From Lingula anatina (lineage: Eukaryota > Animalia > Brachiopoda), in assembly GCA_051362555.1 (NCBI GenBank), contig CM120642.1, positions 30,814,001 through 30,878,000 of the forward strand: 64,000 nucleotides of DNA, written 5' to 3'. Of this stretch, positions 2,441 to 28,266 are shown piece by piece. The notes beneath the pieces were generated by a model that was not told where the DNA came from, searched no databases, and saw only the letters and a program-made list of their open reading frames with translations. A program made the position numbers and the translations under genes. The first letter of the stretch is position 1. Each line of letters opens with the position of its first letter.

Positions 2441-2453
2441 AGTGCCTGCTGGG

Positions 2454-3628
2454 AAAAAACCTAAACTTGAATAGAGATCTTTTATAACAATGCTTTCTCA
2501 GTGCGTGTGTTCAAATATTTCAAACACTTTATCTCAGCACTAATGTTCTTAAAATATCTGATACTTCCCCCAAAGACTATACATAAACTCAAATATATTT
2601 ATCAATTTGTTTAGAATAGGGCTTTAAAATCAACAGGTTTGTTATGATCATAACCTTGCTACTGCTTGGCAGTAATTATTTGCTCCTGCTAATTTCAAGA
2701 GACTGTACCCCGCTCCTCAAAGAAAGTATAGGCTTAGGGCATATCATAAATATTTATGTAAAAAACAATCATAAAATACATGAAATGTTCTTCACACTTT
2801 ATTGAGATATTCTTGAAAGTCCCACTACTTACAGCTGACGCCAGAAGGAAATGGTAAGGAAGAAACTCCATTCTGAGTACACAGTCCAGAGCCTTCAAAC
2901 AGTGCAGCTCTATCCCCTGGTTATCATAGATATATGTCCACTGTTTCTGAGCTACTGCAAACATGGTCTCAATGTGCAACCACCTGAAATGTGAACATAT
3001 TAAACTCTCTGTGCTGTTTATAATACCATGACACAATTCTAAGTTGAAAGCGGTTTCTCAATCACCCATCACTGGAATGAAAAAAAGGGACATCACTGGG
3101 ACGAAAAAAAAAGGGAAGTTTGGCATAGACAAATGATGTTTTATGGCAACGGTTTTCTTTTTTCTTTCTTAATCAATAAACAAATCTATGAAGATATTTT
3201 TTCTCAAAGAGTTTTTAATATTCCTATTGAACACTTTTTTATTCAACTGATTTTCATAAATAGGGCACCTGTTATGTTTACATTTGACAAACTCTTACCA
3301 ATATTTTTCAATAGACTGTTAAACTGATGACTACTGGCACAAAATGTAAAATGTTCCAAAACAATATATAACACCATGAGAGTAAAAAAAAAAATTGGTT
3401 ATAAAAGATTGGAAAAATTTATCCATTGAATAAGACGCATAAACTCAACCAAATCTCATGATATTGTGATGATGCAGAACCTCTTACTTGACATCTTGGG
3501 CTGTCTCCATGACATTCATCTCACACATAAGTTTCTTGGTCTGCCAGTCCATGGCAGCTACGTGACCCTTCCTGCCAGCTATCAGCAGAAACCTGCCGTT
3601 TCTGGTGTAGTTCATTCTGTACGGACCA
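2454..3628 (-). pseudogene. WDR46: WDR46 fragment (complete exon 2833-2983, partial exon 3488-3628, introns), unit 1
   Basis: Aligns to the resident WDR46 gene at ~31767-32940. Encodes [30 protein letters not shown]...LLASA. Has no 5' or 3' exons. Confidence 0.93.
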
Positions 3629-6010
3629 GATCAAATAGAAATAATACTGATAAAAACCCAGGAAATCGCCCTGTTGATTGTCAAGGAAGAGCAGAAGCAA
3701 CTGTCAGCAAACAAAACACAACTGTCTCCCCAGAAAGACCTGTTAAAAAGCTGAAGGTCAGCGCATCAGTTCTTGGAGTAAACAAATCTGTTGAAATTAT
3801 ATAAGATGTTTGAAAAGAAATGTATGATTAAACAATTGTTTTGAGACACAAAATTATAGTTGAATCTTGAACTTGAGTGACAATACACTGCACTTTGCAT
3901 GCAGCCAAACATGCACACTCTGGGGTAGCGCTAGCACTCGCCAATTTAGCCAAATGCTAAAACTGACTTAATTGGCTAAAGAAAAAGGGCTTGATTTGAC
4001 ATGTTTAAGCCAAATTATAACCATTTTGGTAACAAATTGACAAAAATGTGGTGATTTGGCTAAGCGAAAAAAATTGCTAGCGCTACCCCAGACACTTATA
4101 AGAAACTTCTATGCACCAGAGTTCAGATAAAGATAATTCATTTAGAAGAATGTTGATATTTATTTTTGTGGAACTCTGTAATTTGAGGTTAAATTTAACA
4201 TGTATTCTTGTGTCCTGTGGTTCCAGGTTGGTGAAACGAACAGGAAGTACACGTACGTCCCTCTGAGTAAACTGACCAGAGGAGCCACAGTGGATGTTTA
4301 CGCCGTGGTCAAGTTTTTCAAACCACCCACTAAGACACGAGGTTCAGGTAAAGTTTATAATACAGTTAATCCCAAATTGAAGATATGCCGTTCTAAAAAA
4401 ATGGAACATTGATTCACTGGAAGATCCATACAATGAAGTGGCAAACAAGAGACGTTTATCTCTCCACTTTTAGGGGATCTAATGCTCCTGGAACTTAGGT
4501 GTCATCTTTGTTTTTGTGCCTTGTTTCTGTGGCTAGATTTTTCTTACAGGAATGCAGTTTGTGCTAAGATAATGCATAAATTATTTACTTGAAAGATTGT
4601 AGGTTCCTTTTGGTTAGTGTAATTTAAAGATTTTTTGGAATCAGCAATTTAAAACATACCTTTGTCTAGTTGCAGGGAAGATACTTAATTTATGGTAATA
4701 GCAAAAACACTGTCCTCAGTCTTTTATTAATCAACAGACATACATGTAGTGTGTGAAGTGGGTTTCACAGTTTTGGACAAACAGACTTATCTTATGCTAT
4801 TCAGACTACTACATGGTACTTTCCTTGGTGGATCCATCTCTAGCAGACAAGGAGAAAATCAAATGCATTTTGTTTGCAAAGAGCGCTACAGATTTACCGC
4901 CTGTCCAGACTGAGGGAGAAATAGTCAGGATGCATAGACTGAAGGTAGTGAGACTGTTGTGTATATTATGACAATACTCCTTTATCTCATTAAAACATCA
5001 TCCAGTATTGATTTAATTTTTTTTTTCTTGGTGGATTAATGTCTGTTATATTCATGCTTTGTGCAGGTTGTTGGAAACATTTGTCAGCATGTTTTTATGA
5101 AGACATTTAAAACATTTTGATATTTCATGGTTTCTCAACTCAGTTTGGGTAGCTTTTGACAAATGATTTCTGTATTTAGATAAAAAAATCAAAAAATGAA
5201 AATGAAAATCAATTGAAAATACAAAATTCTTAATGTATGCTTTAGCCAGACCCAATAATTTTTAACATGTATGAAAAGAAAACATTCAGAGTGTGCTAAT
5301 GTGATCAGAAAAGCTCAAAATATGATTGCTTGCTCTATACTTTATATGCCCAGTAAACATTTGTGTCCGTTGCAGATTGGGACTTTTAATGGGGAATTAC
5401 AAGGACAGAACGGGCCAGGCTTCTCCTGTATTGTTTTCTCTGCTGACCTGGAGGATCCCATTGAACCTAAGTCCACCACCAGGGGGTACACTCTGACTGA
5501 CCAAGACAGGCTGAAGGTATGTGTGTAATTATGAGCAGCCTTAAGGTGATTAAATGTGATTTTGGTATTGTAATGTTATCTTTTGTTATGTTATGTGTTA
5601 TATTCACCTAGTCTCCTTTTTGTATCTCCGTTGAATTTAATGCACTGTGTAAACATGCACACATGCACAATCTTGTTACCCTTTTTGTACACACTATGTA
5701 CATAATTAAATAGAATAAATGTCCTGTGTGCTTAACAGTTACTTTGAGGAATTTGTTCTTAAAATATTAGTATTTAATTGCAGCACTTGCAATGTGAGTC
5801 CACAACTAGGAGTAAGATAACTGATTGTAGATTAATATTGTAAATGGAGATGATAAAATAAATATTTATTATCACTTGCATAATTGCGTACTTCAGGTGG
5901 AGGAGCTTAGAGAATGGTCTTTACAAGGGGAATGTTTCAGTCAAGAAAGGGATAACAGGTGCACTCTGGGAGAATGTGTGGTCGGCCAGTACTTTGATTT
6001 GTTGTGCCAG
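3629..6010 (+). CDS. POT1: POT1 N-terminal cassette copy 1 (remnant exon 3629-3756; exons 4227-4347, 4805-4944, 5376-5516, 5897-6010), OB1 domain
   Basis: [53 protein letters not shown] matches POT1 OB1 and the start of OB2. All sites are GT-AG and the frame is continuous (121+140+141+114=516 nt). Confidence 0.85.
3919..4092. mobile_element. MITE (~174 bp) in POT1 intron; copies at 9936-10109, 15952-16125, 21968-22141
   Basis: 18-bp perfect TIR TCTGGGGTAGCGCTAGCA / TGCTAGCGCTACCCCAGA. Flanked by CAC on both sides (possible 3-bp TSD). Confidence 0.8.
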
Positions 6011-6018
6011 GTAATCAG

Positions 6019-6060
<42 letters not shown>

Positions 6061-6244
6061 CATTGTACATGGGAGGAAAATGGTCTCAATCTGTCATAAA
6101 GGCCTCTTACCAATCCTCGACTTAAGTCATCATCACATTATTAAAATTTTCACTAGTTTCTCAAGTTGTTGGTGGGTTATGAGAAGTTTTCTGTCAGTTT
6201 TTAACTATCGTCATGTGACGGAGCAATCACGTTGTAGATAAAGT

Positions 6245-8470
6245 GAGGTATCAATGTTGAATCAACGTTGATGGTCAACATTGAAACTATGTTGATATGA
6301 CGTTGACTATGAAAGTTGACTCAACGTTGAACCATCAAGGTTGAATCAACCTTGAGGTATCAATGTTGAATCAACGTTGATGGTCAATGTTGAAACTATG
6401 TTGATATGACGTTGACTATGAAAGTTGACTCAACGTTGAACCATCAAGGTTGAATCAACCTTGAGGTATCAATGTTGAATCAACGTTGATGGTCAATGTT
6501 GAAACTATGTTGATATGACGTTGACTATGAAAGTTGACTCAACGTTGAACCATCAAGGTTGAATCAACCTTGAGGTATCAATGTTGAATCAATGTTGACG
6601 GTCAACGTTGAAACTATGTTGATATGACGTTGACTATGAAAGTTGAATCAACGTTGAACCATCAAGGTTGAATCAACCTTGAGGTATCAATGTTGAATCA
6701 ACATTGATACTTCAATGTTGAATCAATTTTCAAATTAAGTTGAATTTAAAAATTGAATTAACGTTGATATATCAATTAGGCTATCAGGATATTTGATTGA
6801 AATTTGCCTGATGGCTGAAGGTGTTCTCCAAGATATCAAGCATTTCTTGAAATAAAAAGACTCGGATCTGAAAAGGGGGGAAATAAGGAAAATTACCTAC
6901 AAAAAAAGGTAATTCCGAAAGAAAAGGGGGGGGGGGGGGGTCAGACCCCGGGACCGGCCCCTGTATCCACCTATGGGTCGTCAGATTCTTTTTAAACTTT
7001 CCAGTTTGATGCTCAGTGTTACGGACCAAAACAGCCCGAACATAAAAAAACACAAACAACAACTAATTTAACTATGAATATAATATATTACAAACAACGA
7101 ACATACACTACATACACTAACTACATGTAATACTATCATGTTGCATAAACTTTAACATTTGTCAAATACAGTTAAATTCTAACAGATTCGTAGACAGTTA
7201 AGTTTTGAATACGCAATGTCACAGTTTTACGAGTCCTTTTCTGTTGAACGTTCCTCCTGATAGTGTGGGGTTTTGAAGACGCAATGTCACCGTTTTCCAT
7301 GTCCTTATCTGTTGAACGATCCTCCTGATAGTGTGGCCTCACAGAGTACTGTTAATAAAGTACAGTTTTTGTACTGTAAAAGTGTTACACACTGTCCACA
7401 CTCACGTGTTGCATCAGTTATGTTATCCGGAGTCTCGCACTTAATAACAGTCCCGCACTTAATTTACATTATACAAGTATGCAGGCACATACGGTAATTA
7501 CTCATAAAAATTAAACAACAAATTAGCTTTACTAAAATAATTATAACGTCACATCAGGTAGTTAAGATAATTTTAAGAATACAAAAACAAAGGGTCACCA
7601 GTCTAATTTTTTCTCACAGCTAACTTGAATTTCCAGAAAAACAGGCATTTTTGGCTTTTTCAAGCTTTTTCTTCAACCTTGAGTAAATTTTGTCAATTTG
7701 CCATAAAGTAAGGGTGGTGACCCTATGTTTTTTTTTCTTTTTCTTAAAGATAACCTGAACATCAAATCTGGAAAGTTAAAAAAAAAAAATGACGATCGCT
7801 TTTTTTCACTAAATTAATTTTAATGAAAAGGGGGTAAAACAAGCGTTTTATGAGGGGTAATTACCCCTATGCATACCTCTCTAGTGAGATAATCATTTAA
7901 AACTATTATCAAGGTTATGATTAAGGTTATAAATAAAGTTAAGGTTGACCCAATGTTGAGATCCAGTTGATATGTCAACATTGACAAAGAGTTTACAAAC
8001 ACAGGTTGATTCAATGTTGAAATCCTGTTGATCTATCAACATTGAAAATTGATTGACAAAGAAAGGTTAAATCAATGTTGAGACCCTGTTGATCTATCAA
8101 CATTGACAATTGGTTGACAAGAAAAGTTTGATTCAATGTTGAAATCCTGTTGATCTATCAACATTGAAAATTGATTGACAAAGAAAGGTTAAATCAATGT
8201 TGAGACCCTGTTGATCTATCAACATTGACAATTGGTTGACAAGAAAAGTTTGATTCAATGTTGAAATCCTGTTGATCTATCAACATTGAAAATTGATTGA
8301 CAAAGAAAGGTTAAATCAATGTTGAGACCCTGTTGATCCATCAACATTGACAATTGGTTGACAAGAAAAGGTTGATTCAATGTTGAGATCTTGTTGATCT
8401 ATCAATATTGATGGATCAACATCATCTCAACCTATCCTCAATGTTGAATCAACGTTGAGTGCCTGCTGGG
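6245..8470. mobile_element. CMC/EnSpm-like element, unit 2
   Basis: Near-identical copy of 231-2453. Confidence 0.65.
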
Positions 8471-9645
8471 AAAAAACCTAAACTTGAATAGAGATCTTTT
8501 ATAACAATGCTTTCTCAGTGCGTGTGTTCAAATATTTCAAACACTTTATCTCAGCACTAATGTTCTTAAAATATCTGATACTTCCCCCAAAGACTATACA
8601 TAAACTCAAATATATTTATCAATTTGTTTAGAATAGGGCTTTAAAATCAACAGGTTTGTTATGATCATAACCTTGCTACTGCTTGGCAGTAATTATTTGC
8701 TCCTGCTAATTTCAAGAGACTGTACCCCGCTCCTCAAAGAAAGTATAGGCTTAGGGCATATCATAAATATTTATGTAAAAAACAATCATAAAATACATGA
8801 AATGTTCTTCACACTTTATTGAGATATTCTTGAAAGTCCCACTACTTACAGCTGACGCCAGAAGGAAATGGTAAGGAAGAAACTCCATTCTGAGTACACA
8901 GTCCAGAGCCTTCAAACAGTGCAGCTCTATCCCCTGGTTATCATAGATATATGTCCACTGTTTCTGAGCTACTGCAAACATGGTCTCAATGTGCAACCAC
9001 CTGAAATGTGAACATATTAAACTCTCTGTGCTGTTTATAATACCATGACACAATTCTAAGTTGAAAGCGGTTTCTCAATCACCCATCACTGGAATGAAAA
9101 AAAGGGACATCACTGGGACGAAAAAAAAAGGGAAGTTTGGCATAGACAAATGATGTTTTATGGCAACGGTTTTCTTTTTTCTTTCTTAATCAATAAACAA
9201 ATCTATGAAGATATTTTTTCTCAAAGAGTTTTTAATATTCCTATTGAACACTTTTTTATTCAACTGATTTTCATAAATAGGGCACCTGTTATGTTTACAT
9301 TTGACAAACTCTTACCAATATTTTTCAATAGACTGTTAAACTGATGACTACTGGCACAAAATGTAAAATGTTCCAAAACAATATATAACACCATGAGAGT
9401 AAAAAAAAAAATTGGTTATAAAAGATTGGAAAAATTTATCCATTGAATAAGACGCATAAACTCAACCAAATCTCATGATATTGTGATGATGCAGAACCTC
9501 TTACTTGACATCTTGGGCTGTCTCCATGACATTCATCTCACACATAAGTTTCTTGGTCTGCCAGTCCATGGCAGCTACGTGACCCTTCCTGCCAGCTATC
9601 AGCAGAAACCTGCCGTTTCTGGTGTAGTTCATTCTGTACGGACCA
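8471..9645 (-). pseudogene. WDR46: WDR46 fragment, unit 2
   Basis: Near-identical copy of 2454-3628. Confidence 0.93.
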
Positions 9646-12027
9646 GATCAAATAGAAATAATACTGATAAAAACCCAGGAAATCGCCCTGTTGATTGTCA
9701 AGGAAGAGCAGAAGCAACTGTCAGCAAACAAAACACAACTGTCTCCCCAGAAAGACCTGTTAAAAAGCTGAAGGTCAGCGCATCAGTTCTTGGAGTAAAC
9801 AAATCTGTTGAAATTATATAAGATGTTTGAAAAGAAATGTATGATTAAACAATTGTTTTGAGACACAAAATTATAGTTGAATCTTGAACTTGAGTGACAA
9901 TACACTGCACTTTGCATGCAGCCAAACATGCACACTCTGGGGTAGCGCTAGCACTCGCCAATTTAGCCAAATGCTAAAACTGACTTAATTGGCTAAAGAA
10001 AAAGGGCTTGATTTGACATGTTTAAGCCAAATTATAACCATTTTGGTAACAAATTGACAAAAATGTGGTGATTTGGCTAAGCGAAAAAAATTGCTAGCGC
10101 TACCCCAGACACTTATAAGAAACTTCTATGCACCAGAGTTCAGATAAAGATAATTCATTTAGAAGAATGTTGATATTTATTTTTGTGGAACTCTGTAATT
10201 TGAGGTTAAATTTAACATGTATTCTTGTGTCCTGTGGTTCCAGGTTGGTGAAACGAACAGGAAGTACACGTACGTCCCTCTGAGTAAACTGACCAGAGGA
10301 GCCACAGTGGATGTTTACGCCGTGGTCAAGTTTTTCAAACCACCCACTAAGACACGAGGTTCAGGTAAAGTTTATAATACAGTTAATCCCAAATTGAAGA
10401 TATGCCGTTCTAAAAAAATGGAACATTGATTCACTGGAAGATCCATACAATGAAGTGGCAAACAAGAGACGTTTATCTCTCCACTTTTAGGGGATCTAAT
10501 GCTCCTGGAACTTAGGTGTCATCTTTGTTTTTGTGCCTTGTTTCTGTGGCTAGATTTTTCTTACAGGAATGCAGTTTGTGCTAAGATAATGCATAAATTA
10601 TTTACTTGAAAGATTGTAGGTTCCTTTTGGTTAGTGTAATTTAAAGATTTTTTGGAATCAGCAATTTAAAACATACCTTTGTCTAGTTGCAGGGAAGATA
10701 CTTAATTTATGGTAATAGCAAAAACACTGTCCTCAGTCTTTTATTAATCAACAGACATACATGTAGTGTGTGAAGTGGGTTTCACAGTTTTGGACAAACA
10801 GACTTATCTTATGCTATTCAGACTACTACATGGTACTTTCCTTGGTGGATCCATCTCTAGCAGACAAGGAGAAAATCAAATGCATTTTGTTTGCAAAGAG
10901 CGCTACAGATTTACCGCCTGTCCAGACTGAGGGAGAAATAGTCAGGATGCATAGACTGAAGGTAGTGAGACTGTTGTGTATATTATGACAATACTCCTTT
11001 ATCTCATTAAAACATCATCCAGTATTGATTTAATTTTTTTTTTCTTGGTGGATTAATGTCTGTTATATTCATGCTTTGTGCAGGTTGTTGGAAACATTTG
11101 TCAGCATGTTTTTATGAAGACATTTAAAACATTTTGATATTTCATGGTTTCTCAACTCAGTTTGGGTAGCTTTTGACAAATGATTTCTGTATTTAGATAA
11201 AAAAATCAAAAAATGAAAATGAAAATCAATTGAAAATACAAAATTCTTAATGTATGCTTTAGCCAGACCCAATAATTTTTAACATGTATGAAAAGAAAAC
11301 ATTCAGAGTGTGCTAATGTGATCAGAAAAGCTCAAAATATGATTGCTTGCTCTATACTTTATATGCCCAGTAAACATTTGTGTCCGTTGCAGATTGGGAC
11401 TTTTAATGGGGAATTACAAGGACAGAACGGGCCAGGCTTCTCCTGTATTGTTTTCTCTGCTGACCTGGAGGATCCCATTGAACCTAAGTCCACCACCAGG
11501 GGGTACACTCTGACTGACCAAGACAGGCTGAAGGTATGTGTGTAATTATGAGCAGCCTTAAGGTGATTAAATGTGATTTTGGTATTGTAATGTTATCTTT
11601 TGTTATGTTATGTGTTATATTCACCTAGTCTCCTTTTTGTATCTCCGTTGAATTTAATGCACTGTGTAAACATGCACACATGCACAATCTTGTTACCCTT
11701 TTTGTACACACTATGTACATAATTAAATAGAATAAATGTCCTGTGTGCTTAACAGTTACTTTGAGGAATTTGTTCTTAAAATATTAGTATTTAATTGCAG
11801 CACTTGCAATGTGAGTCCACAACTAGGAGTAAGATAACTGATTGTAGATTAATATTGTAAATGGAGATGATAAAATAAATATTTATTATCACTTGCATAA
11901 TTGCGTACTTCAGGTGGAGGAGCTTAGAGAATGGTCTTTACAAGGGGAATGTTTCAGTCAAGAAAGGGATAACAGGTGCACTCTGGGAGAATGTGTGGTC
12001 GGCCAGTACTTTGATTTGTTGTGCCAG
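9646..12027 (+). CDS. POT1: POT1 OB1 cassette copy 2 (exons 10244-10364, 10822-10961, 11393-11533, 11914-12027)
   Basis: Same translation and splice sites as copy 1. Confidence 0.85.
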
Positions 12028-12035
12028 GTAATCAG

Positions 12036-12075
<40 letters not shown>

Positions 12076-12259
12076 CATTGTACATGGGAGGAAAATGGTC
12101 TCAATCTGTCATAAAGGCCTCTTACCAATCCTCGACTTAAGTCATCATCACATTATTAAAATTTTCACTAGTTTCTCAAGTTGTTGGTGGGTTATGAGAA
12201 GTTTTCTGTCAGTTTTTAACTATCGTCATGTGACGGAGCAATCACGTTGTAGATAAAGT

Positions 12260-14486
12260 GAGGTATCAATGTTGAATCAACGTTGATGGTCAACATTGAA
12301 ACTATGTTGATATGACGTTGACTATGAAAGTTGACTCAACGTTGAACCATCAAGGTTGAATCAACCTTGAGGTATCAATGTTGAATCAACGTTGATGGTC
12401 AATGTTGAAACTATGTTGATATGACGTTGACTATGAAAGTTGACTCAACGTTGAACCATCAAGGTTGAATCAACCTTGAGGTATCAATGTTGAATCAACG
12501 TTGATGGTCAATGTTGAAACTATGTTGATATGACGTTGACTATGAAAGTTGACTCAACGTTGAACCATCAAGGTTGAATCAACCTTGAGGTATCAATGTT
12601 GAATCAATGTTGACGGTCAACGTTGAAACTATGTTGATATGACGTTGACTATGAAAGTTGAATCAACGTTGAACCATCAAGGTTGAATCAACCTTGAGGT
12701 ATCAATGTTGAATCAACATTGATACTTCAATGTTGAATCAATTTTCAAATTAAGTTGAATTTAAAAATTGAATTAACGTTGATATATCAATTAGGCTATC
12801 AGGATATTTGATTGAAATTTGCCTGATGGCTGAAGGTGTTCTCCAAGATATCAAGCATTTCTTGAAATAAAAAGACTCAGATCTGAAAAGGGGGGAAATA
12901 AGGAAAATTACCTACAAAAAAAGGTAATTCCGAAAGAAAAGGGGGGGGGGGGGGGGTCAGACCCCGGGACCGGCCCCTGTATCCACCTATGGGTCGTCAG
13001 ATTCTTTTTAAACTTTCCAGTTTGATGCTCAGTGTTACGGACCAAAACAGCCCGAACATAAAAAAACACAAACAACAACTAATTTAACTATGAATATAAT
13101 ATATTACAAACAACGAACATACACTACATACACTAACTACATGTAATACTATCATGTTGCATAAACTTTAACATTTGTCAAATACAGTTAAATTCTAACA
13201 GATTCGTAGACAGTTAAGTTTTGAATACGCAATGTCACAGTTTTACGAGTCCTTTTCTGTTGAACGTTCCTCCTGATAGTGTGGGGTTTTGAAGACGCAA
13301 TGTCACCGTTTTCCATGTCCTTATCTGTTGAACGATCCTCCTGATAGTGTGGCCTCACAGAGTACTGTTAATAAAGTACAGTTTTTGTACTGTAAAAGTG
13401 TTACACACTGTCCACACTCACGTGTTGCATCAGTTATGTTATCCGGAGTCTCGCACTTAATAACAGTCCCGCACTTAATTTACATTATACAAGTATGCAG
13501 GCACATACGGTAATTACTCATAAAAATTAAACAACAAATTAGCTTTACTAAAATAATTATAACGTCACATCAGGTAGTTAAGATAATTTTAAGAATACAA
13601 AAACAAAGGGTCACCAGTCTAATTTTTTCTCACAGCTAACTTGAATTTCCAGAAAAACAGGCATTTTTGGCTTTTTCAAGCTTTTTCTTCAACCTTGAGT
13701 AAATTTTGTCAATTTGCCATAAAGTAAGGGTGGTGACCCTATGTTTTTTTTTCTTTTTCTTAAAGATAACCTGAACATCAAATCTGGAAAGTTAAAAAAA
13801 AAAAATGACGATCGCTTTTTTTCACTAAATTAATTTTAATGAAAAGGGGGTAAAACAAGCGTTTTATGAGGGGTAATTACCCCTATGCATACCTCTCTAG
13901 TGAGATAATCATTTAAAACTATTATCAAGGTTATGATTAAGGTTATAAATAAAGTTAAGGTTGACCCAATGTTGAGATCCAGTTGATATGTCAACATTGA
14001 CAAAGAGTTTACAAACACAGGTTGATTCAATGTTGAAATCCTGTTGATCTATCAACATTGAAAATTGATTGACAAAGAAAGGTTAAATCAATGTTGAGAC
14101 CCTGTTGATCTATCAACATTGACAATTGGTTGACAAGAAAAGTTTGATTCAATGTTGAAATCCTGTTGATCTATCAACATTGAAAATTGATTGACAAAGA
14201 AAGGTTAAATCAATGTTGAGACCCTGTTGATCTATCAACATTGACAATTGGTTGACAAGAAAAGTTTGATTCAATGTTGAAATCCTGTTGATCTATCAAC
14301 ATTGAAAATTGATTGACAAAGAAAGGTTAAATCAATGTTGAGACCCTGTTGATCCATCAACATTGACAATTGGTTGACAAGAAAAGGTTGATTCAATGTT
14401 GAGATCTTGTTGATCTATCAATATTGATGGATCAACATCATCTCAACCTATCCTCAATGTTGAATCAACGTTGAGTGCCTGCTGGG
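12260..14486. mobile_element. CMC/EnSpm-like element, unit 3
   Basis: Near-identical copy of 231-2453. Confidence 0.65.
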
Positions 14487-15661
14487 AAAAAACCTAAACT
14501 TGAATAGAGATCTTTTATAACAATGCTTTCTCAGTGCGTGTGTTCAAATATTTCAAACACTTTATCTCAGCACTAATGTTCTTAAAATATCTGATACTTC
14601 CCCCAAAGACTATACATAAACTCAAATATATTTATCAATTTGTTTAGAATAGGGCTTTAAAATCAACAGGTTTGTTATGATCATAACCTTGCTACTGCTT
14701 GGCAGTAATTATTTGCTCCTGCTAATTTCAAGAGACTGTACCCCGCTCCTCAAAGAAAGTATAGGCTTAGGGCATATCATAAATATTTATGTAAAAAACA
14801 ATCATAAAATACATGAAATGTTCTTCACACTTTATTGAGATATTCTTGAAAGTCCCACTACTTACAGCTGACGCCAGAAGGAAATGGTAAGGAAGAAACT
14901 CCATTCTGAGTACACAGTCCAGAGCCTTCAAACAGTGCAGCTCTATCCCCTGGTTATCATAGATATATGTCCACTGTTTCTGAGCTACTGCAAACATGGT
15001 CTCAATGTGCAACCACCTGAAATGTGAACATATTAAACTCTCTGTGCTGTTTATAATACCAAGACACAATTCTAAGTTGAAAGCGGTTTCTCAATCACCC
15101 ATCACTGGAATGAAAAAAAGGGACATCACTGGGACGAAAAAAAAAGGGAAGTTTGGCATAGACAAATGATGTTTTATGGCAACGGTTTTCTTTTTTCTTT
15201 CTTAATCAATAAACAAATCTATGAAGATATTTTTTCTCAAAGAGTTTTTAATATTCCTATTGAACACTTTTTTATTCAACTGATTTTCATAAATAGGGCA
15301 CCTGTTATGTTTACATTTGACAAACTCTTACCAATATTTTTCAATAGACTGTTAAACTGATGACTACTGGCACAAAATGTAAAATGTTCCAAAACAATAT
15401 ATAACACCATGAGAGTAAAAAAAAAAATTGGTTATAAAAGATTGGAAAAATTTATCCATTGAATAAGACGCATAAACTCAACCAAATCTCATGATATTGT
15501 GATGATGCAGAACCTCTTACTTGACATCTTGGGCTGTCTCCATGACATTCATCTCACACATAAGTTTCTTGGTCTGCCAGTCCATGGCAGCTACGTGACC
15601 CTTCCTGCCAGCTATCAGCAGAAACCTGCCGTTTCTGGTGTAGTTCATTCTGTACGGACCA
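14487..15661 (-). pseudogene. WDR46: WDR46 fragment, unit 3
   Basis: Near-identical copy of 2454-3628. Confidence 0.93.
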
Positions 15662-18043
15662 GATCAAATAGAAATAATACTGATAAAAACCCAGGAAATC
15701 GCCCTGTTGATTGTCAAGGAAGAGCAGAAGCAACTGTCAGCAAACAAAACACAACTGTCTCCCCAGAAAGACCTGTTAAAAAGCTGAAGGTCAGCGCATC
15801 AGTTCTTGGAGTAAACAAATCTGTTGAAATTATATAAGATGTTTGAAAAGAAATGTATGATTAAACAATTGTTTTGAGACACAAAATTATAGTTGAATCT
15901 TGAACTTGAGTGACAATACACTGCACTTTGCATGCAGCCAAACATGCACACTCTGGGGTAGCGCTAGCACTCGCCAATTTAGCCAAATGCTAAAACTGAC
16001 TTAATTGGCTAAAGAAAAAGGGCTTGATTTGACATGTTTAAGCCAAATTATAACCATTTTGGTAACAAATTGACAAAAATGTGGTGATTTGGCTAAGCGA
16101 AAAAAATTGCTAGCGCTACCCCAGACACTTATAAGAAACTTCTATGCACCAGAGTTCAGATAAAGATAATTCATTTAGAAGAATGTTGATATTTATTTTT
16201 GTGGAACTCTGTAATTTGAGGTTAAATTTAACATGTATTCTTGTGTCCTGTGGTTCCAGGTTGGTGAAACGAACAGGAAGTACACGTACGTCCCTCTGAG
16301 TAAACTGACCAGAGGAGCCACAGTGGATGTTTACGCCGTGGTCAAGTTTTTCAAACCACCCACTAAGACACGAGGTTCAGGTAAAGTTTATAATACAGTT
16401 AATCCCAAATTGAAGATATGCCGTTCTAAAAAAATGGAACATTGATTCACTGGAAGATCCATACAATGAAGTGGCAAACAAGAGACGTTTATCTCTCCAC
16501 TTTTAGGGGATCTAATGCTCCTGGAACTTAGGTGTCATCTTTGTTTTTGTGCCTTGTTTCTGTGGCTAGATTTTTCTTACAGGAATGCAGTTTGTGCTAA
16601 GATAATGCATAAATTATTTACTTGAAAGATTGTAGGTTCCTTTTGGTTAGTGTAATTTAAAGATTTTTTGGAATCAGCAATTTAAAACATACCTTTGTCT
16701 AGTTGCAGGGAAGATACTTAATTTATGGTAATAGCAAAAACACTGTCCTCAGTCTTTTATTAATCAACAGACATACATGTAGTGTGTGAAGTGGGTTTCA
16801 CAGTTTTGGACAAACAGACTTATCTTATGCTATTCAGACTACTACATGGTACTTTCCTTGGTGGATCCATCTCTAGCAGACAAGGAGAAAATCAAATGCA
16901 TTTTGTTTGCAAAGAGCGCTACAGATTTACCGCCTGTCCAGACTGAGGGAGAAATAGTCAGGATGCATAGACTGAAGGTAGTGAGACTGTTGTGTATATT
17001 ATGACAATACTCCTTTATCTCATTAAAACATCATCCAGTATTGATTTAATTTTTTTTTTCTTGGTGGATTAATGTCTGTTATATTCATGCTTTGTGCAGG
17101 TTGTTGGAAACATTTGTCAGCATGTTTTTATGAAGACATTTAAAACATTTTGATATTTCATGGTTTCTCAACTCAGTTTGGGTAGCTTTTGACAAATGAT
17201 TTCTGTATTTAGATAAAAAAATCAAAAAATGAAAATGAAAATCAATTGAAAATACAAAATTCTTAATGTATGCTTTAGCCAGACCCAATAATTTTTAACA
17301 TGTATGAAAAGAAAACATTCAGAGTGTGCTAATGTGATCAGAAAAGCTCAAAATATGATTGCTTGCTCTATACTTTATATGCCCAGTAAACATTTGTGTC
17401 CGTTGCAGATTGGGACTTTTAATGGGGAATTACAAGGACAGAACGGGCCAGGCTTCTCCTGTATTGTTTTCTCTGCTGACCTGGAGGATCCCATTGAACC
17501 TAAGTCCACCACCAGGGGGTACACTCTGACTGACCAAGACAGGCTGAAGGTATGTGTGTAATTATGAGCAGCCTTAAGGTGATTAAATGTGATTTTGGTA
17601 TTGTAATGTTATCTTTTGTTATGTTATGTGTTATATTCACCTAGTCTCCTTTTTGTATCTCCGTTGAATTTAATGCACTGTGTAAACATGCACACATGCA
17701 CAATCTTGTTACCCTTTTTGTACACACTATGTACATAATTAAATAGAATAAATGTCCTGTGTGCTTAACAGTTACTTTGAGGAATTTGTTCTTAAAATAT
17801 TAGTATTTAATTGCAGCACTTGCAATGTGAGTCCACAACTAGGAGTAAGATAACTGATTGTAGATTAATATTGTAAATGGAGATGATAAAATAAATATTT
17901 ATTATCACTTGCATAATTGCGTACTTCAGGTGGAGGAGCTTAGAGAATGGTCTTTACAAGGGGAATGTTTCAGTCAAGAAAGGGATAACAGGTGCACTCT
18001 GGGAGAATGTGTGGTCGGCCAGTACTTTGATTTGTTGTGCCAG
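15662..18043 (+). CDS. POT1: POT1 OB1 cassette copy 3 (exons 16260-16380, 16838-16977, 17409-17549, 17930-18043)
   Basis: Same translation and splice sites as copy 1. Confidence 0.85.
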
Positions 18044-18051
18044 GTAATCAG

Positions 18052-18091
<40 letters not shown>

Positions 18092-18275
18092 CATTGTACA
18101 TGGGAGGAAAATGGTCTCAATCTGTCATAAAGGCCTCTTACCAATCCTCGACTTAAGTCATCATCACATTATTAAAATTTTCACTAGTTTCTCAAGTTGT
18201 TGGTGGGTTATGAGAAGTTTTCTGTCAGTTTTTAACTATCGTCATGTGACGGAGCAATCACGTTGTAGATAAAGT

Positions 18276-20502
18276 GAGGTATCAATGTTGAATCAACGTT
18301 GATGGTCAACATTGAAACTATGTTGATATGACGTTGACTATGAAAGTTGACTCAACGTTGAACCATCAAGGTTGAATCAACCTTGAGGTATCAATGTTGA
18401 ATCAACGTTGATGGTCAATGTTGAAACTATGTTGATATGACGTTGACTATGAAAGTTGACTCAACGTTGAACCATCAAGGTTGAATCAACCTTGAGGTAT
18501 CAATGTTGAATCAACGTTGATGGTCAATGTTGAAACTATGTTGATATGACGTTGACTATGAAAGTTGACTCAACGTTGAACCATCAAGGTTGAATCAACC
18601 TTGAGGTATCAATGTTGAATCAATGTTGACGGTCAACGTTGAAACTATGTTGATATGACGTTGACTATGAAAGTTGAATCAACGTTGAACCATCAAGGTT
18701 GAATCAACCTTGAGGTATCAATGTTGAATCAACATTGATACTTCAATGTTGAATCAATTTTCAAATTAAGTTGAATTTAAAAATTGAATTAACGTTGATA
18801 TATCAATTAGGCTATCAGGATATTTGATTGAAATTTGCCTGATGGCTGAAGGTGTTCTCCAAGATATCAAGCATTTCTTGAAATAAAAAGACTCAGATCT
18901 GAAAAGGGGGGAAATAAGGAAAATTACCTACAAAAAAAGGTAATTCCGAAAGAAAAGGGGGGGGGGGGGGGGTCAGACCCCGGGACCGGCCCCTGTATCC
19001 ACCTATGGGTCGTCAGATTCTTTTTAAACTTTCCAGTTTGATGCTCAGTGTTACGGACCAAAACAGCCCGAACATAAAAAAACACAAACAACAACTAATT
19101 TAACTATGAATATAATATATTACAAACAACGAACATACACTACATACACTAACTACATGTAATACTATCATGTTGCATAAACTTTAACATTTGTCAAATA
19201 CAGTTAAATTCTAACAGATTCGTAGACAGTTAAGTTTTGAATACGCAATGTCACAGTTTTACGAGTCCTTTTCTGTTGAACGTTCCTCCTGATAGTGTGG
19301 GGTTTTGAAGACGCAATGTCACCGTTTTCCATGTCCTTATCTGTTGAACGATCCTCCTGATAGTGTGGCCTCACAGAGTACTGTTAATAAAGTACAGTTT
19401 TTGTACTGTAAAAGTGTTACACACTGTCCACACTCACGTGTTGCATCAGTTATGTTATCCGGAGTCTCGCACTTAATAACAGTCCCGCACTTAATTTACA
19501 TTATACAAGTATGCAGGCACATACGGTAATTACTCATAAAAATTAAACAACAAATTAGCTTTACTAAAATAATTATAACGTCACATCAGGTAGTTAAGAT
19601 AATTTTAAGAATACAAAAACAAAGGGTCACCAGTCTAATTTTTTCTCACAGCTAACTTGAATTTCCAGAAAAACAGGCATTTTTGGCTTTTTCAAGCTTT
19701 TTCTTCAACCTTGAGTAAATTTTGTCAATTTGCCATAAAGTAAGGGTGGTGACCCTATGTTTTTTTTTCTTTTTCTTAAAGATAACCTGAACATCAAATC
19801 TGGAAAGTTAAAAAAAAAAAATGACGATCGCTTTTTTTCACTAAATTAATTTTAATGAAAAGGGGGTAAAACAAGCGTTTTATGAGGGGTAATTACCCCT
19901 ATGCATACCTCTCTAGTGAGATAATCATTTAAAACTATTATCAAGGTTATGATTAAGGTTATAAATAAAGTTAAGGTTGACCCAATGTTGAGATCCAGTT
20001 GATATGTCAACATTGACAAAGAGTTTACAAACACAGGTTGATTCAATGTTGAAATCCTGTTGATCTATCAACATTGAAAATTGATTGACAAAGAAAGGTT
20101 AAATCAATGTTGAGACCCTGTTGATCTATCAACATTGACAATTGGTTGACAAGAAAAGTTTGATTCAATGTTGAAATCCTGTTGATCTATCAACATTGAA
20201 AATTGATTGACAAAGAAAGGTTAAATCAATGTTGAGACCCTGTTGATCTATCAACATTGACAATTGGTTGACAAGAAAAGTTTGATTCAATGTTGAAATC
20301 CTGTTGATCTATCAACATTGAAAATTGATTGACAAAGAAAGGTTAAATCAATGTTGAGACCCTGTTGATCCATCAACATTGACAATTGGTTGACAAGAAA
20401 AGGTTGATTCAATGTTGAGATCTTGTTGATCTATCAATATTGATGGATCAACATCATCTCAACCTATCCTCAATGTTGAATCAACGTTGAGTGCCTGCTG
20501 GG
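18276..20502. mobile_element. CMC/EnSpm-like element, unit 4
   Basis: Near-identical copy of 231-2453. Confidence 0.65.
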
Positions 20503-21677
20503 AAAAAACCTAAACTTGAATAGAGATCTTTTATAACAATGCTTTCTCAGTGCGTGTGTTCAAATATTTCAAACACTTTATCTCAGCACTAATGTTCTTA
20601 AAATATCTGATACTTCCCCCAAAGACTATACATAAACTCAAATATATTTATCAATTTGTTTAGAATAGGGCTTTAAAATCAACAGGTTTGTTATGATCAT
20701 AACCTTGCTACTGCTTGGCAGTAATTATTTGCTCCTGCTAATTTCAAGAGACTGTACCCCGCTCCTCAAAGAAAGTATAGGCTTAGGGCATATCATAAAT
20801 ATTTATGTAAAAAACAATCATAAAATACATGAAATGTTCTTCACACTTTATTGAGATATTCTTGAAAGTCCCACTACTTACAGCTGACGCCAGAAGGAAA
20901 TGGTAAGGAAGAAACTCCATTCTGAGTACACAGTCCAGAGCCTTCAAACAGTGCAGCTCTATCCCCTGGTTATCATAGATATATGTCCACTGTTTCTGAG
21001 CTACTGCAAACATGGTCTCAATGTGCAACCACCTGAAATGTGAACATATTAAACTCTCTGTGCTGTTTATAATACCAAGACACAATTCTAAGTTGAAAGC
21101 GGTTTCTCAATCACCCATCACTGGAATGAAAAAAAGGGACATCACTGGGACGAAAAAAAAAGGGAAGTTTGGCATAGACAAATGATGTTTTATGGCAACG
21201 GTTTTCTTTTTTCTTTCTTAATCAATAAACAAATCTATGAAGATATTTTTTCTCAAAGAGTTTTTAATATTCCTATTGAACACTTTTTTATTCAACTGAT
21301 TTTCATAAATAGGGCACCTGTTATGTTTACATTTGACAAACTCTTACCAATATTTTTCAATAGACTGTTAAACTGATGACTACTGGCACAAAATGTAAAA
21401 TGTTCCAAAACAATATATAACACCATGAGAGTAAAAAAAAAAATTGGTTATAAAAGATTGGAAAAATTTATCCATTGAATAAGACGCATAAACTCAACCA
21501 AATCTCATGATATTGTGATGATGCAGAACCTCTTACTTGACATCTTGGGCTGTCTCCATGACATTCATCTCACACATAAGTTTCTTGGTCTGCCAGTCCA
21601 TGGCAGCTACGTGACCCTTCCTGCCAGCTATCAGCAGAAACCTGCCGTTTCTGGTGTAGTTCATTCTGTACGGACCA
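20503..21677 (-). pseudogene. WDR46: WDR46 fragment, unit 4
   Basis: Near-identical copy of 2454-3628. Confidence 0.93.
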
Positions 21678-24072
21678 GATCAAATAGAAATAATACTGAT
21701 AAAAACCCAGGAAATCGCCCTGTTGATTGTCAAGGAAGAGCAGAAGCAACTGTCAGCAAACAAAACACAACTGTCTCCCCAGAAAGACCTGTTAAAAAGC
21801 TGAAGGTCAGCGCATCAGTTCTTGGAGTAAACAAATCTGTTGAAATTATATAAGATGTTTGAAAAGAAATGTATGATTAAACAATTGTTTTGAGACACAA
21901 AATTATAGTTGAATCTTGAACTTGAGTGACAATACACTGCACTTTGCATGCAGCCAAACATGCACACTCTGGGGTAGCGCTAGCACTCGCCAATTTAGCC
22001 AAATGCTAAAACTGACTTAATTGGCTAAAGAAAAAGGGCTTGATTTGACATGTTTAAGCCAAATTATAACCATTTTGGTAACAAATTGACAAAAATGTGG
22101 TGATTTGGCTAAGCGAAAAAAATTGCTAGCGCTACCCCAGACACTTATAAGAAACTTCTATGCACCAGAGTTCAGATAAAGATAATTCATTTAGAAGAAT
22201 GTTGATATTTATTTTTGTGGAACTCTGTAATTTGAGGTTAAATTTAACATGTATTCTTGTGTCCTGTGGTTCCAGGTTGGTGAAACGAACAGGAAGTACA
22301 CGTACGTCCCTCTGAGTAAACTGACCAGAGGAGCCACAGTGGATGTTTACGCCGTGGTCAAGTTTTTCAAACCACCCACTAAGACACGAGGTTCAGGTAA
22401 AGTTTATAATACAGTTAATCCCAAATTGAAGATATGCCGTTCTAAAAAAATGGAACATTGATTCACTGGAAGATCCATACAATGAAGTGGCAAACAAGAG
22501 ACGTTTATCTCTCCACTTTTAGGGGATCTAATGCTCCTGGAACTTAGGTGTCATCTTTGTTTTTGTGCCTTGTTTCTGTGGCTAGATTTTTCTTACAGGA
22601 ATGCAGTTTGTGCTAAGATAATGCATAAATTATTTACTTGAAAGATTGTAGGTTCCTTTTGGTTAGTGTAATTTAAAGATTTTTTGGAATCAGCAATTTA
22701 AAACATACCTTTGTCTAGTTGCAGGGAAGATACTTAATTTATGGTAATAGCAAAAACACTGTCCTCAGTCTTTTATTAATCAACAGACATACATGTAGTG
22801 TGTGAAGTGGGTTTCACAGTTTTGGACAAACAGACTTATCTTATGCTATTCAGACTACTACATGGTACTTTCCTTGGTGGATCCATCTCTAGCAGACAAG
22901 GAGAAAATCAAATGCATTTTGTTTGCAAAGAGCGCTACAGATTTACCGCCTGTCCAGACTGAGGGAGAAATAGTCAGGATGCATAGACTGAAGGTAGTGA
23001 GACTGTTGTGTATATTATGACAATACTCCTTTATCTCATTAAAACATCATCCAGTATTGATTTAATTTTTTTTTTTCTTGGTGGATTAATGTCTGTTATA
23101 TTCATGCTTTGTGCAGGTTGTTGGAAACATTTGTCAGCATGTTTTTATGAAGACATTTAAAACATTTTGATATTTCATGGTTTCTCAACTCAGTTTGGGT
23201 AGCTTTTGACAAATGATTTCTGTATTTAGATAAAAAAATCAAAAAATGAAAATGAAAATCAATTGAAAATACAAAATTCTTAATGTATGCTTTAGCCAGA
23301 CCCAATAATTTTTAACATGTATGAAAAGAAAACATTCAGAGTGTGCTAATGTGATCAGAAAAGCTCAAAATATGATTGCTTGCTCTATACTTTATATGCC
23401 CAGTAAACATTTGTGTCCGTTGCAGATTGGGACTTTTAATGGGGAATTACAAGGACAGAACGGGCCAGGCTTCTCCTGTATTGTTTTCTCTGCTGACCTG
23501 GAGGATCCCATTGAACCTAAGTCCACCACCAGGGGGTACACTCTGACTGACCAAGACAGGCTGAAGGTATGTGTGTAATTATGAGCAGCCTTAAGGTGAT
23601 TAAATGTGATTTTGGTATTGTAATGTTATCTTTTGTTATGTTATGTGTTATATTCACCTAGTCTCCTTTTTGTATCTCCGTTGAATTTAATGCACTGTGT
23701 AAACATGCACACATGCACAATCTTAATTGTTACCCTTTTTGTACACACTATGTACATAATTAAATAGAATAAATGTCCTGTGTGCTTAACAGTTACTTTG
23801 AGGAATTTGTTCTTAAAATATTAGTATTTAATTGCAGCACTTGCAATGTGAGTCCACAACTAGGAGTAAGATAACTGATTGTAGATTAATATTGTAAATG
23901 GAGATGATAAAATAAATATTTATTATCACTTGCATAATTGCGTACTTCAGGTGGAGGAGCTTAGAGAATGGTCTTTACAAGGGGAATGTTTCAGTCAAGA
24001 AAGGGATAACAGGTGCACTCTGGGAGAATGTGTGGTCGGCCAGTACTTTGATTTGTTGTGCCAGGTAATCAG

Positions 24073-24114
<42 letters not shown>

Positions 24115-27100
24115 CATTGTACATGGGAGGAAAATGGTCTCAATCTGTCATAAAGGCCTCTTACCAATCCTCGACTTAAGTCATCATCACATTATTAAAA
24201 TTTTCACTAGTTTCTCAAGTTGTTGGTGGGTTATGAGAAGTTTTCTGTCAGTTTTTAACTATCGTCATGTGACGGAGCAATCACGTTGTAGATAAAGTGT
24301 ACTAAACTATGGCTGTGCTATTTCGAATAGTTTCATATTTCAGGTAGTTGGTATTGGAGAGATAGAGGTGGAGATTGGCAGGTGTGTTTTACTACAGGTG
24401 TGGGATGGGACTAAGATGTCCAGGTAAGTCTTCACACCTTAAAATATATATTGGGAATTTATCATGTCACATCACCTGAAGCTTTTGGGGACTAACTTTT
24501 GCCCTTCTTGCCAGGATGTTGTGCTGTGAGATGGGGGGGGGGGGGAGTTGCTGTCTTGTGACTGTTCACATCACACTTTTTTTGGTGATATATGACTTTG
24601 ATAAAAAATTCTCCTAACCTTAATAATTTTCTGTTCATATCTATTTTAAATTGTAAGTTTACTATCAGTTAAAGGGAGCACATACAAAATGAACAGAATT
24701 CTAAGTTTAACATAATGCCTGCAGAGGTTCATTTTAAATTCATACCTGCAAAATGATCAGAGAATTTGGCATAGTTGTGTTGTCAGCTCTACTAGAACAT
24801 GTATGTGTTTTTACTGCACACCTCATAATGACAGTTTACTTTGTTCTCACATATTTTTTATAACTATTGAACTGTTAAGCAATGTACATGTTTTAGAGTT
24901 ATGTCTTACTGACCCAAGATTTTTTTCTTTTTTTTTTTCTTTTTTAGGAAGACTGACTTTTGTGTGACAGTGCCTTCTTGTTCTTCAACAACTTGCAATT
25001 AGTTCTTCGATTCCACATCACTTTCAGATAATATACTGATCTCAGGACCATTTTGTCTTTTTTTTCTTTGTATTTACAGCCCCTATCATAAGTGTGATAT
25101 TGCAAAGGAAGACATTCACATAGATGAGCAACTTACAGAAAGAGTCCTGGACTTCATTGTTGATGTCTATGTATTTGATGACCATGTGCCTGTTGCTCAA
25201 AAGTTAAAGGTGAGAAAAAGATGGTCTAAACAGTAGATGTCTCAGTTCTCTCAGAATACTGCAAATGAGTCTCAAGAGACCAAAACTGTCGGCATGTAGT
25301 GTGTGAAAAAATTGGTGGGTATTTACAAATTATATACAGTAGTATTGGGGTTTCTGTCTTATTGGAACCAGTTGTCAGATTTGTCAGCTTTACCGATTCT
25401 CTTCTACTGTTTTTTTTTCTTTTTTTTTTTTACATTAGCTCTGTGGGCAGCCTCTCATTTTATTGATATGAACAGACATATTTTCAAGTAATTTTCCATT
25501 TTTGTCAGCCAAATTAAATTATCTGTAGCATTTGAGTTAGTTACAGGAGTATATATGTTAGCATTGGCTCAGGTTCGCATTAATAGAAACTGTAATCATT
25601 ATTACACTAATGTTTTTCTGTATTCTTAGCCTGGTCAGTTTATCATGCTGAAGAATCTCCATGCTGCTATGTATAAGGATGAAGACACCCGTCCCGAGTT
25701 GAGTGCTGTCCCCACCATAGAACTCTGTCTGCACAAGGGGACATCATATGGCCGAGGAATAATGGTCATGGCTGAAGGCAGCGGGGAAGTGACCTGTTTA
25801 AAAGACATTATGAATGGGGTATGACCTTTCTAGGACTTGTGCCTTTTTTTCCAACAGATCTACTGAAAGTGTCATTTATGAACAGGTCAACATTTGGTGA
25901 CATTTTTATTTCTTCGCTTACTAAGAGTGCTCTCAGGCAGACTGACTAATACCAGAAATAGACATATTTACACAGTAGAACAACAGGTACCAAAGACCCC
26001 CAACATGGACGAGGCATTGAAAGCAAACAACCTTGTTCTGTTAACTTTTCTAGGACCTGTCTTAGTCTAATTGTAGGCATGTCTTTATGGTGGAGATTTA
26101 CTATTGATGAGCTGTTGTTAACTGATTTTTTATTTGTACACTAGGTTTTTGGAGCAATATGTTGTAATATGATTTGTGCAATGGTATTGATTCAAAGCAG
26201 GCATGAAGAAAGTGATATGGACATTTGAGTCTATTTTCAGGTTTGTCCTCAGCTGCAAGATGAGGGGGCACCTGGTAGTCCCAATAATCCTCAGCCAAGT
26301 ACTTCTACGGGTAAGTCCACAAGCCCTGGAAAGATGGGGGAGACAGCAAACAAAAACTCTAACAGTATGTTCAGCAGAAATGTGATATTACCTAGTTTTC
26401 CCCAACCCAGTACATCCAAAGGAGTTTCAAAAAGCCCAAGAAAAAGTAGAGACACAGCAGACCAGAGGTCAAGCAGGGCAGAACATAGTATTGGACATTC
26501 TACGGAACCAAGAGTAGAAAATGTAGTCATAATTGATGAGAGCGAGTCTCTTGATTTGAACAGCAGTCCTAGTGGCAAAGACACAGTGGGAGGTGTCCAG
26601 GCTGGTGGTACCCCCTATAGTCCAAGAAAAACACCAAACCAGGCTAGGAAAGTGGACAGATGCCTTTTGAAAACTGCATCAGGTATTAAAATTGGTCTCT
26701 GACGTATATTTTAATTTTTTTTAATATATGTATTACGTTTGTTTAATACATTTAGCAAAGCTTTGTCTGCCCATCTGAAAATTCTGAAATAAAATACATT
26801 TTCCTACATTTTACCTTTAAAGCATAATGTAAAAGTACATGGCACTTTGATAAATTGAATAATTTCCAAATAAACTTAAAAAGGGGCACCACATAGACAT
26901 CTTTTGTCATCTTTAATTTTGAAATAGTCATTGAATGGCAAATAAATGTCTATTTGACGTTTCAGTTATCAACGGGCACCATCACTTAGAAATCTCCACA
27001 ATACAAGAAGTCTTACATCACAGCGTTCCCCACACGTTCCGAGTTCTTGCCCAGGTCCTGGACTACCAACCCAAGCAGCCTCCATACATACGACTGACGT

Positions 27101-28266
27101 GCCCTATGTGCCATTACTTGTAAGTATGTGGAGTCTGGAAAAACTGGGTCATCTCTCTCTATCTCTCTCTCTCCTACACACACACACTAAAAAAATAAAA
27201 AAGATTTATGAAATTGGTTTTATTTGAGCACAGATAGATCGGCAACACCAGTAGTCCAATGAAATGTAATATTGTGCCTGTTTTTGTTTTCAAAGTTAGG
27301 ACCCACTTTCTGTCTAAAGTTTTCTTGTGAAGCACACCTCTTGACCCGTGTCATTTTTAATAGAAATGTAGTCAGTTTCAAGCTGTATAAAAATACCATT
27401 CATTAGTGAATTTGAAGCTGTATATAAAGATGCCAGTGTAAAGGAGCACTTCTGGGCACTGTCAAGTGGTTTCTACTTTCACTTTCACTTTTTCTGTGTA
27501 AACTACTTGCACTTATTTCCACCAGGGCAGTTCCAGACTCCAAATGGCTTACGGAGCACGTTCCCAGCAGAGTACAGGATAAAGTTCCTTACTATTCCTG
27601 TCCTCAGTGTGACCAAAGGTCAATCTCAGCAGCAACCAGTTCCGAGTGGTCAGTAACCAGGGTGACCAGTGCCGGGACTGAAGTGACCAGCACAGATGGT
27701 CAGGTAGTGGTCAATGGGCAGGAGCTTGAATATGTGTACATGATGGAGTTTTTACTGGAGGATGGGACTGGCTGGCTGGTGGCCAGAATCTGGAAGCAGC
27801 ATGCAGTAAGGGTTCATTGAGTGAAAAATGTGTTATATGACCATTGGTGATATATGCTTTATTTGGTTTAAAGAGCATTTATTTTTTTTGGGAGGGGAGG
27901 GGGGGGGGTTGAAATGCAATTACTTTTTTTCCTGGTATGTATGTCAAATGAAACAAATAAATATTTAAGCAATATATCTGTTCAGCCATTTTATAGTACA
28001 TAATTCTATCAATGAAATGGATAAAAAGTATTCTATTTCCTGTTATTCGTTAGGTCACTTTCCTGAATGACATTTCTCCTGAAACACTCATCTGGCAGGA
28101 GGATGGAGTGAGGTTTGTGGAAGGACAGTTAAAGGAATTGTCCCCAAGGCCAGGAAGAAGTGAGCAAAAACCATGGCTGGAATGTTGTCTGCTGTCATAC
28201 AATGGTCTAAACGGAGAACGGCTTTATCACATATTTGATACTACTTTGGCATTGGACTGTTTGTAA
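21678..28266 (+). CDS. POT1: Protection of telomeres protein 1 (OB1-OB2-linker-OB3); native 5' end not in window
   Basis: Exons 21678-21805 (5'-truncated), 22276-22396, 22854-22993, 23426-23566, 23951-24064, 24344-24423, 25080-25209, 25630-25818, 26241-26682, 26966-27119, 27526-27805, 28054-28266 (TAA), all in frame. Motifs [58 protein letters not shown]. Confidence 0.95.

Follow-up and report, generated by a model that had tools for sequence, protein, structure and literature searches.

POT1 exons and the repeat array

In a self-comparison of the window (i.e., the whole analyzed stretch of 64,000 nucleotides of Lingula anatina DNA), positions 1-24299 were found to form a 6.0-kb head-to-tail repeat with 99.8-99.9% identity between the copies, introns included. 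Each unit carries the same four POT1 exons (A-D, together named the cassette); exons E-K follow the last copy, and a WDR46 gene lies behind them on the opposite strand. The following features were distinguished:

1..231, + strand: intron D tail from one more copy upstream; its last 178 bases equal 24122-24299, with no differences
232..6245, + strand: unit 1 (6014 bp)
6246..12260, + strand: unit 2 (6015 bp)
12261..18276, + strand: unit 3 (6016 bp)
18277..24299, + strand: unit 4 (6023 bp), the sole unit running on into exons E-K
232..2453, no strand assigned: patchwork of repeats opening each unit (109-bp, 68-bp and 61/122-bp tandem arrays)
2454..3628, - strand: WDR46 (UTP7) fragment, one exon plus the larger part of another, a copy of 31767-32940
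3469..3474, + strand: two in-frame ATGs within the antisense WDR46 exon; their frame stays open across exon Z as far as exon A
3629..3756, + strand: remnant of POT1 exon Z (linker before OB1), 128 bases, donor intact
4227..6010, + strand: cassette copy 1 (exons A 4227-4347, B 4805-4944, C 5376-5516 and D 5897-6010)
10244..12027, + strand: cassette copy 2, identical exons A-D
16260..18043, + strand: cassette copy 3, identical exons A-D
22276..24064, + strand: cassette copy 4, identical exons A-D; B-C and C-D joints present in RNA
24344..28266, + strand: POT1 exons E 24344-24423, F 25080-25209, G 25630-25818, H 26241-26682, I 26966-27119, J 27526-27805 and K 28054-28266, with the stop
28748..36080 (ends approximate), - strand: intact WDR46 gene, with spliced RNA joints at 28977-36030

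The window start falls inside the array, which comprises four units and the tail of a fifth; the expectation of the original prediction that a further copy lies upstream was borne out, as window bases 1-231 are the tail of that copy's intron D. Pairwise alignment of the units revealed two substitution sites (850/6864, and 3029 with T in units 1-2 and A in units 3-4), both outside exons A-D, i.e., 2 per 6 kb, while the other differences were a 1-nt insertion, a 4-nt insertion (at 23723, unit 4 only) and homopolymer or GT-repeat lengths. The patchwork of repeats is the same in units 2-4, the unit breakpoint being the start of the 109-bp array, and is likely transposon-derived. From exon D to the next exon A there are 4.2 kb (235 bases of intron D, the 2.2-kb patchwork, the WDR46 fragment and exon Z), which is more than a plain POT1 intron. 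Between exons Z and A (21968-22143, and in the same place of each unit), a 175-bp MITE-like element with terminal inverted repeats was observed, which is matched by hundreds of RNA reads from other loci.

Exons A-D (121+140+141+114 = 516 nt, 172 aa, stop-free) are letter-identical in 4/4 units, with AG/GT ends at 16/16, which agrees with the earlier claim of four POT1 exons repeated four times with intact splice sites and no stops. Likewise, the cassette was confirmed to be in phase 0 at both ends, and the continuation into the OB2/OB3 exons to be limited to the last copy. This copy together with exons E-K gives a 667-aa frame with 646/670 positions identical to the L. anatina POT1-like protein P0001, and the protein encoded by the cassette is 100% identical to L. 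anatina XP_013394446.1; the assignment of the gene to POT1 holds, and every sequence feature tested agrees with it. OB1 (PF02765) was recognized with 110.7 bits at residues 19-151 of P0001, a stretch with the same sequence in the cassette. OB2 (PF16686; 88 bits, residues 172-299) follows OB1 and is complete solely past the last copy, exons E-K encoding the remainder of OB2, the linker, the split OB3 and the stop. Units 1-3 stop within the first strand of OB2: with the domain limits taken from Pfam, PDB alignments and the AlphaFold model of P0001 (mean pLDDT 73.9), the cassette end (residue 181) lies inside the predicted first OB2 strand (E175-190), which is consistent with the orphan OB2 strand that had been suggested for each repeat. 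The split C-terminal OB3 matched human C-terminal structures at E 1e-17, its zinc cysteines (C510/C513/C541) were invariant across 24 sequences, and PF25507 reached 26.3 bits, slightly below its cut-off of 27. In the human protein, the POT-hole residues are Y9, R80, H82 and R83, according to the accessible part of PMC13557083. These align with Y17, R91, H93 and R94 of P0001, so the POT-hole is kept in OB1, as had been proposed. Exon G (25630-25818) is three codons shorter than in P0001. By sequence, the POT1 part of the window is POT1, yet it appears to be incomplete as a gene.

In the region of 28748-43823, the gene order is POT1 (+), WDR46 (-) and CDC7 (+). WDR46 and CDC7 are located head to head, and RNA was observed on both strands at ~35-36.6 kb. 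Further on, the minus strand of 48000-62956 carries exons of a ZP-domain gene (PF00100, E 0.014), which we take to resemble TGFBR3/betaglycan.

Exon Z, the WDR46 fragment and the 5' side of the units

The exon Z remnant is present in every unit (ending at 9773, 15789 and 21805 in the other three). Five reads of the RNA run X14 pass from exon Z into exon A, covering just the last ~42 bases of exon Z; since these reads enter exon A from precisely that sequence, exon Z is a real POT1 exon, linker-like and in frame with exon A. The RefSeq model XP_013394446.1 starts at an ATG at window position 22249, in the intron/acceptor region before exon A, and is probably 5'-incomplete because RNA joins exon Z to A. 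The single recorded Lingula POT1 protein also lacks exon Z and OB-N, and a search with exon Z for a full-length Lingula POT1 gave two candidates, none of which scored, and is weak evidence.

In every unit, the 5' side of exon Z is taken over by an antisense WDR46 exon cut mid-exon. No in-frame ATG is present within the exon Z remnant, and a profile of 56 homologous N-terminal extensions gave no credible match to an OB-N exon in the six frames of the window. OB-N is present in most metazoan POT1s, as stated in the available part of PMC8653790; among 154 homologs, at least 100 residues precede OB1 in 77 and fewer than 60 in 63. Because exon Z lacks an ATG and the OB-N profile found no match, the native POT1 start appears to be absent from every unit. 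The ATGs at 3469..3474 are a possible, chimeric candidate start.

The WDR46 fragment (1.17 kb) was also found at 8471-9645, 14487-15661 and 20503-21677. A PDB sequence search linked it to human WDR46 (E 7e-19), and Pfam gave no WDR46 name from the single exons. Its source gene appears to be the intact WDR46 at 28748..36080, with which it shares 79% BLAST identity with gaps; 280/289 exon and 725/810 intron positions are identical (85 aligned intron sites differ, plus gaps). All nine exon differences are synonymous, and the expressed WDR46 alleles share four of those nine letters with the fragment. An old decayed pseudogene was considered and rejected, as 9/9 synonymous differences would have a chance of ~6e-5 under a simple dead-copy model. 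RNA joints which seem to go back (32332->21535 and 31755->20882) were also dismissed; they are read as WDR46 alleles that fit the fragment better and not as real transcripts. The WDR46 intron at 33352-33801 has CC..AC ends, with one extra letter in X12/X13 reads, which is either an allele difference or a non-canonical donor.

DNA and RNA reads over the locus

Contigs of two of the 12 contig runs (X1 and X3) were examined, and contig depth is no copy number. In X1, contigs without substitutions relative to the unit had a depth of 596-629 against about 160-255 for the window-like downstream contigs (i.e., the unit was ~2.7x deeper), and the contig across 24299 had the intermediate depth of 392; divergent contigs with a depth of 77-90 were present both in the unit and downstream. 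X1 is perhaps pooled, and perhaps the assembly's own sample, in which case its read support is not independent. In X3, the depth was 143-156 in the unit and ~86-117 in homozygous stretches downstream (ratio ~1.5), resembling two copies of the 3' half. The listed X3 contigs showed no substitutions relative to the unit (22150-24299) and many relative to exons E-K and their introns (24344-28266), including five within 24374-24433, and the haplotype seems to switch near the array end. The unit-to-unit junction was absent among the X1/X3 joints and among the 15 of 31 loose ends listed. Given the ~2.7-fold excess of the unit in the X1 contigs, the amplification probably exists in the DNA itself and probably differs between animals.

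RNA was analyzed in five of the nine runs (X12, X13, X14, X15 and X18; 6-25% of each), with a POT1 depth of 3-10 reads. Three synonymous sites (22344, 22870 and 23992; exons A, B and D) gave 57 read-site observations, 56 of which carried letters other than those of the window. The ratio of RNA depth in exons A-D to that in E-K was 1.15 in X12, 1.23 in X15, 1.13 in X18, 1.5-1.6 in X13 and 2.83 in X14, where a homozygous five-unit transcript would be expected to give ~5. The excess in X14 does not come from the units of the window, because 5/5 of its reads are non-window at 23992. The amplification is not shared species-wide, the five RNA samples carrying other alleles with ratios of 1.1-1.6 (four) and 2.8 (one). 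The 12 RNA joints listed for X13/X14 included 7/10 canonical POT1 joints (5/6 of the joints internal to E-K). None of the 12 was the D-to-A joint that the original prediction had pointed to, and A-B, D-E and E-F were equally absent. This search had low power: a skipped GT repeat adjoins the D donor, two joints were lost to repeats, and the animals have alleles other than that of the window. In a wider RNA mapping (15 of 36 joints listed), WDR46 joints crowd the POT1 joints. In the five RNA animals, POT1 is transcribed from other alleles without a clear signal of the repeat, and these animals are uninformative on the transcripts of carriers. Altogether, the array is most likely a genuine and very recent structural variant, which did not show in the RNA of the five animals. 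Many RNA reads were just 90-95% alike to the window; this high allelic divergence across the locus may reflect a species complex. Plus-strand RNA depth was low over 19528-20855.

Origin of the array and its possible products

The orientation of the junction between WDR46 position 32940 and exon Z is that expected from a tandem duplication of 21678-32940, and it favours a head-to-tail duplication of which 32940 would be the far breakpoint. The reading that we prefer, with confidence only a little above even, is that the array is a very recent 6-kb amplification in a 5'-truncated, promoterless second POT1, and that an intact POT1 lies upstream of the window. A headless array of this kind would likely yield little or no poly-OB1 protein, capping being provided by the intact upstream gene.

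The junction suggests as the first event a head-to-tail duplication that spanned ~11.3 kb between POT1 exon Z and WDR46 32940 and joined a divergent working haplotype (left) to the haplotype of the window (right). The left copy would comprise the promoter, the start codon and the whole POT1, followed by a headless WDR46, and the right copy a headless POT1 followed by the intact WDR46. Because the fragment combines wholly synonymous exon differences (9/9) with ~10% of differing intron sites and four of nine letters shared with expressed alleles, the left copy would thus have derived recently from a working, divergent haplotype. Repeats may then have settled in the dead WDR46 piece, and the unit would have arisen by a further tandem duplication that began in these repeats and ended 235 bases inside intron D of the right copy (the junction is visible in the window, the mechanism presumed), with unequal crossing-over leading to five or more units. 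The 178 bases left of all four unit junctions show 0/178 differences from the last copy. This identity in 4/4 junctions indicates that the unit junction was made from the right-hand headless copy, which makes an intact POT1 upstream more likely. A deletion in the divergent left copy as the origin of the unit was rejected, since 0/178 differences would have a chance of 0.004 at 3% divergence; gene conversion could mask such an origin.

The in-frame outcome would be a by-product of many phase-0 introns. As phase 0 applies to 6/10 introns after exon A (55% by length), chance alone would give an in-frame unit about half the time, and the in-frame cassette is weak evidence. In a crude matrix built from 22 introns, no AG of the D-to-A intron outscored the exon A acceptor, and the strongest cryptic acceptor ahead of exon Z (3478) is in frame. 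If a promoter feeds the array, the likely product would be a transcript with (OB1)n in frame. The repeats show no sign of selection, as the copies are 99.8-99.9% identical including introns; with two substitution sites per 6 kb, they are too young for exon and intron divergence to show it. In the human protein, TTAGGG is bound by OB1, which also harbours the POT-hole, and TTAG by OB2, according to the accessible portion of PMC7617103. Extra OB1 modules could add ssDNA contacts, each dragging along half a strand of OB2, and extra POT-holes would add no valency at a chromosome end, which has one 5' junction.

The original prediction went on to splicing from an upstream promoter, giving (OB1)n-OB2-OB3. 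Its groundwork (gene identity, frame, POT-hole, OB2 strand and fifth copy) stands, and the splicing step gained no support: the WDR46/Z junction cuts each unit from the POT1 5' end, and none of the five RNA samples expresses the amplified allele. The separate intact POT1, which the prediction had set against itself, is deduced here from the junction, upstream of the window, and the poly-OB1 reading is left standing as the less likely one. In this model, which we hold to be possible though doubtful, the repeats and the WDR46 piece were inserted upstream of exon Z in the only POT1 of the haplotype and then amplified, so that exon D would be joined to exon A in carriers, either directly or through a cryptic in-frame exon with its end at Z, the product being (OB-N)-(OB1)n-OB2-OB3. 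It is a tentative claim that a segregating allele thus has, as its sole POT1, a gene with five or more identical OB1 modules before one OB2-OB3, and rather unlikely that its product is a multivalent telomere end-binder whose valency shifts by unequal crossing-over. POT1 is commonly essential, and in an essential gene only an in-frame event survives; the intact splice sites and the kept frame suit such an intragenic event, as do the top-scoring exon A acceptor and the in-frame acceptor at 3478, and the identical 178-base tails fit it too. However, it calls for a templated insertion of the neighbour's fragment in its own orientation and from a divergent allele, one junction more than a tandem duplication, and would damage an essential gene on the 5' side of its exon Z. 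The two 3'-half types in X1, in unequal amounts, also speak against it, together with the best 150 HMMER hits, none with more than two OB1-like stretches, and, at low power, with the 12 listed joints, which hold no D-to-A joint, and the five loose reads entering A from Z. Against the headless duplicate, in turn, stand the sole recorded Lingula POT1, the position of the intact copy beyond the window, the X3 pattern (two 3'-half copies and a unit ~1.5x deeper), which equally fits an intragenic duplication, the 2.8-fold RNA depth of X14 on exons A-D, and the in-frame ATGs with a fair in-frame acceptor (3478) in the unit. In favour of the headless duplicate, the X1 mix of divergent and window-like contigs departs from the 1:1 of a simple heterozygote.

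An assembly artefact, in which the assembler looped one or two real units through the WDR46 duplicate and the satellite-like repeats, is improbable. The near-identity of the copies, with differences mostly in homopolymer or GT-repeat lengths, would suit it, as would the lack of the unit-to-unit junction among the listed X1/X3 joints and loose ends and the single X1 contig passing 24299 in the downstream form, but the X1 depth of 596-629 in the unit against 177-241 downstream and 392 across the boundary argues for real copies, and so do the substitution separating units 1-2 from 3-4 and the 4-nt insertion marking unit 4. Even less probable is a cryptic promoter in the patchwork, with translation from the antisense WDR46 ATGs giving a chimeric leader-(OB1)n-OB2-OB3 protein beside normal POT1: the frame is open from 3469 via Z into A and some plus-strand RNA covers 19528-20855, but those reads sit on repeats and come from animals with other alleles, and no read was shown across the WDR46/Z junction.

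The headless-duplicate reading may be set beside several known systems. With metazoan POT1 (human, PDB 1XJV/8SH0/7QXB; PF02765, PF16686 and PF25507; Lingula XP_013394446.1), the window shares OB1, OB2, the linker, the split Zn-binding OB3 and the POT-hole, but it has the OB1 exons four or more times, each copy preceded by the WDR46 fragment, and lacks OB-N and the native start. Four-OB POT1s with OB-N (the parts consulted being those available of PMC8653790 and, for Ustilago Pot1, PMC9119445) likewise vary in OB-fold number and predict further 5' exons here, but OB-N is an ancient, divergent fold, which in the accessible text of PMC9119445 is without DNA binding, and no identical repeat of OB1. 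Segregating tandem or intragenic exon duplications and partial gene duplicates offer the same near-identical head-to-tail copies with introns, a chimeric neighbour-gene junction and a breakpoint in repeats, and are similarly not evident in other animals; unlike that class in general, the event described here hit a telomere-capping gene, with the frame kept and the borders near those of the domain. A HMMER search with the cassette gave 489 hits; of the best 150, six proteins had two OB1 stretches and none had more. Two PF02765 stretches in one chain also occur in P0072 and P0080/P0172 (unnamed or weakly named), where they show no BLASTP self-similarity and are hence old and divergent. The literature search, outside which most subscription papers lay, found no report of a poly-OB1 POT1 or of this locus. 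In the Lingula genome paper (PMC13121700), "POT1" and "telomer" are absent from the main text, and "POT1", "POTE1" and "WDR46" from three supplementary files.

If the preferred reading is true, i.e., amplification in a headless second POT1, the locus is an ordinary though intricate structural variant. It also calls for caution, as gene models of this region can merge several units into a spurious poly-OB1 protein or place the POT1 start on an intronic ATG, as RefSeq does. If the array is instead driven by a POT1 promoter, the locus would offer a natural experiment on how OB1 valency affects end protection, in which carriers could be compared with non-carriers of the same species for telomere and overhang length.
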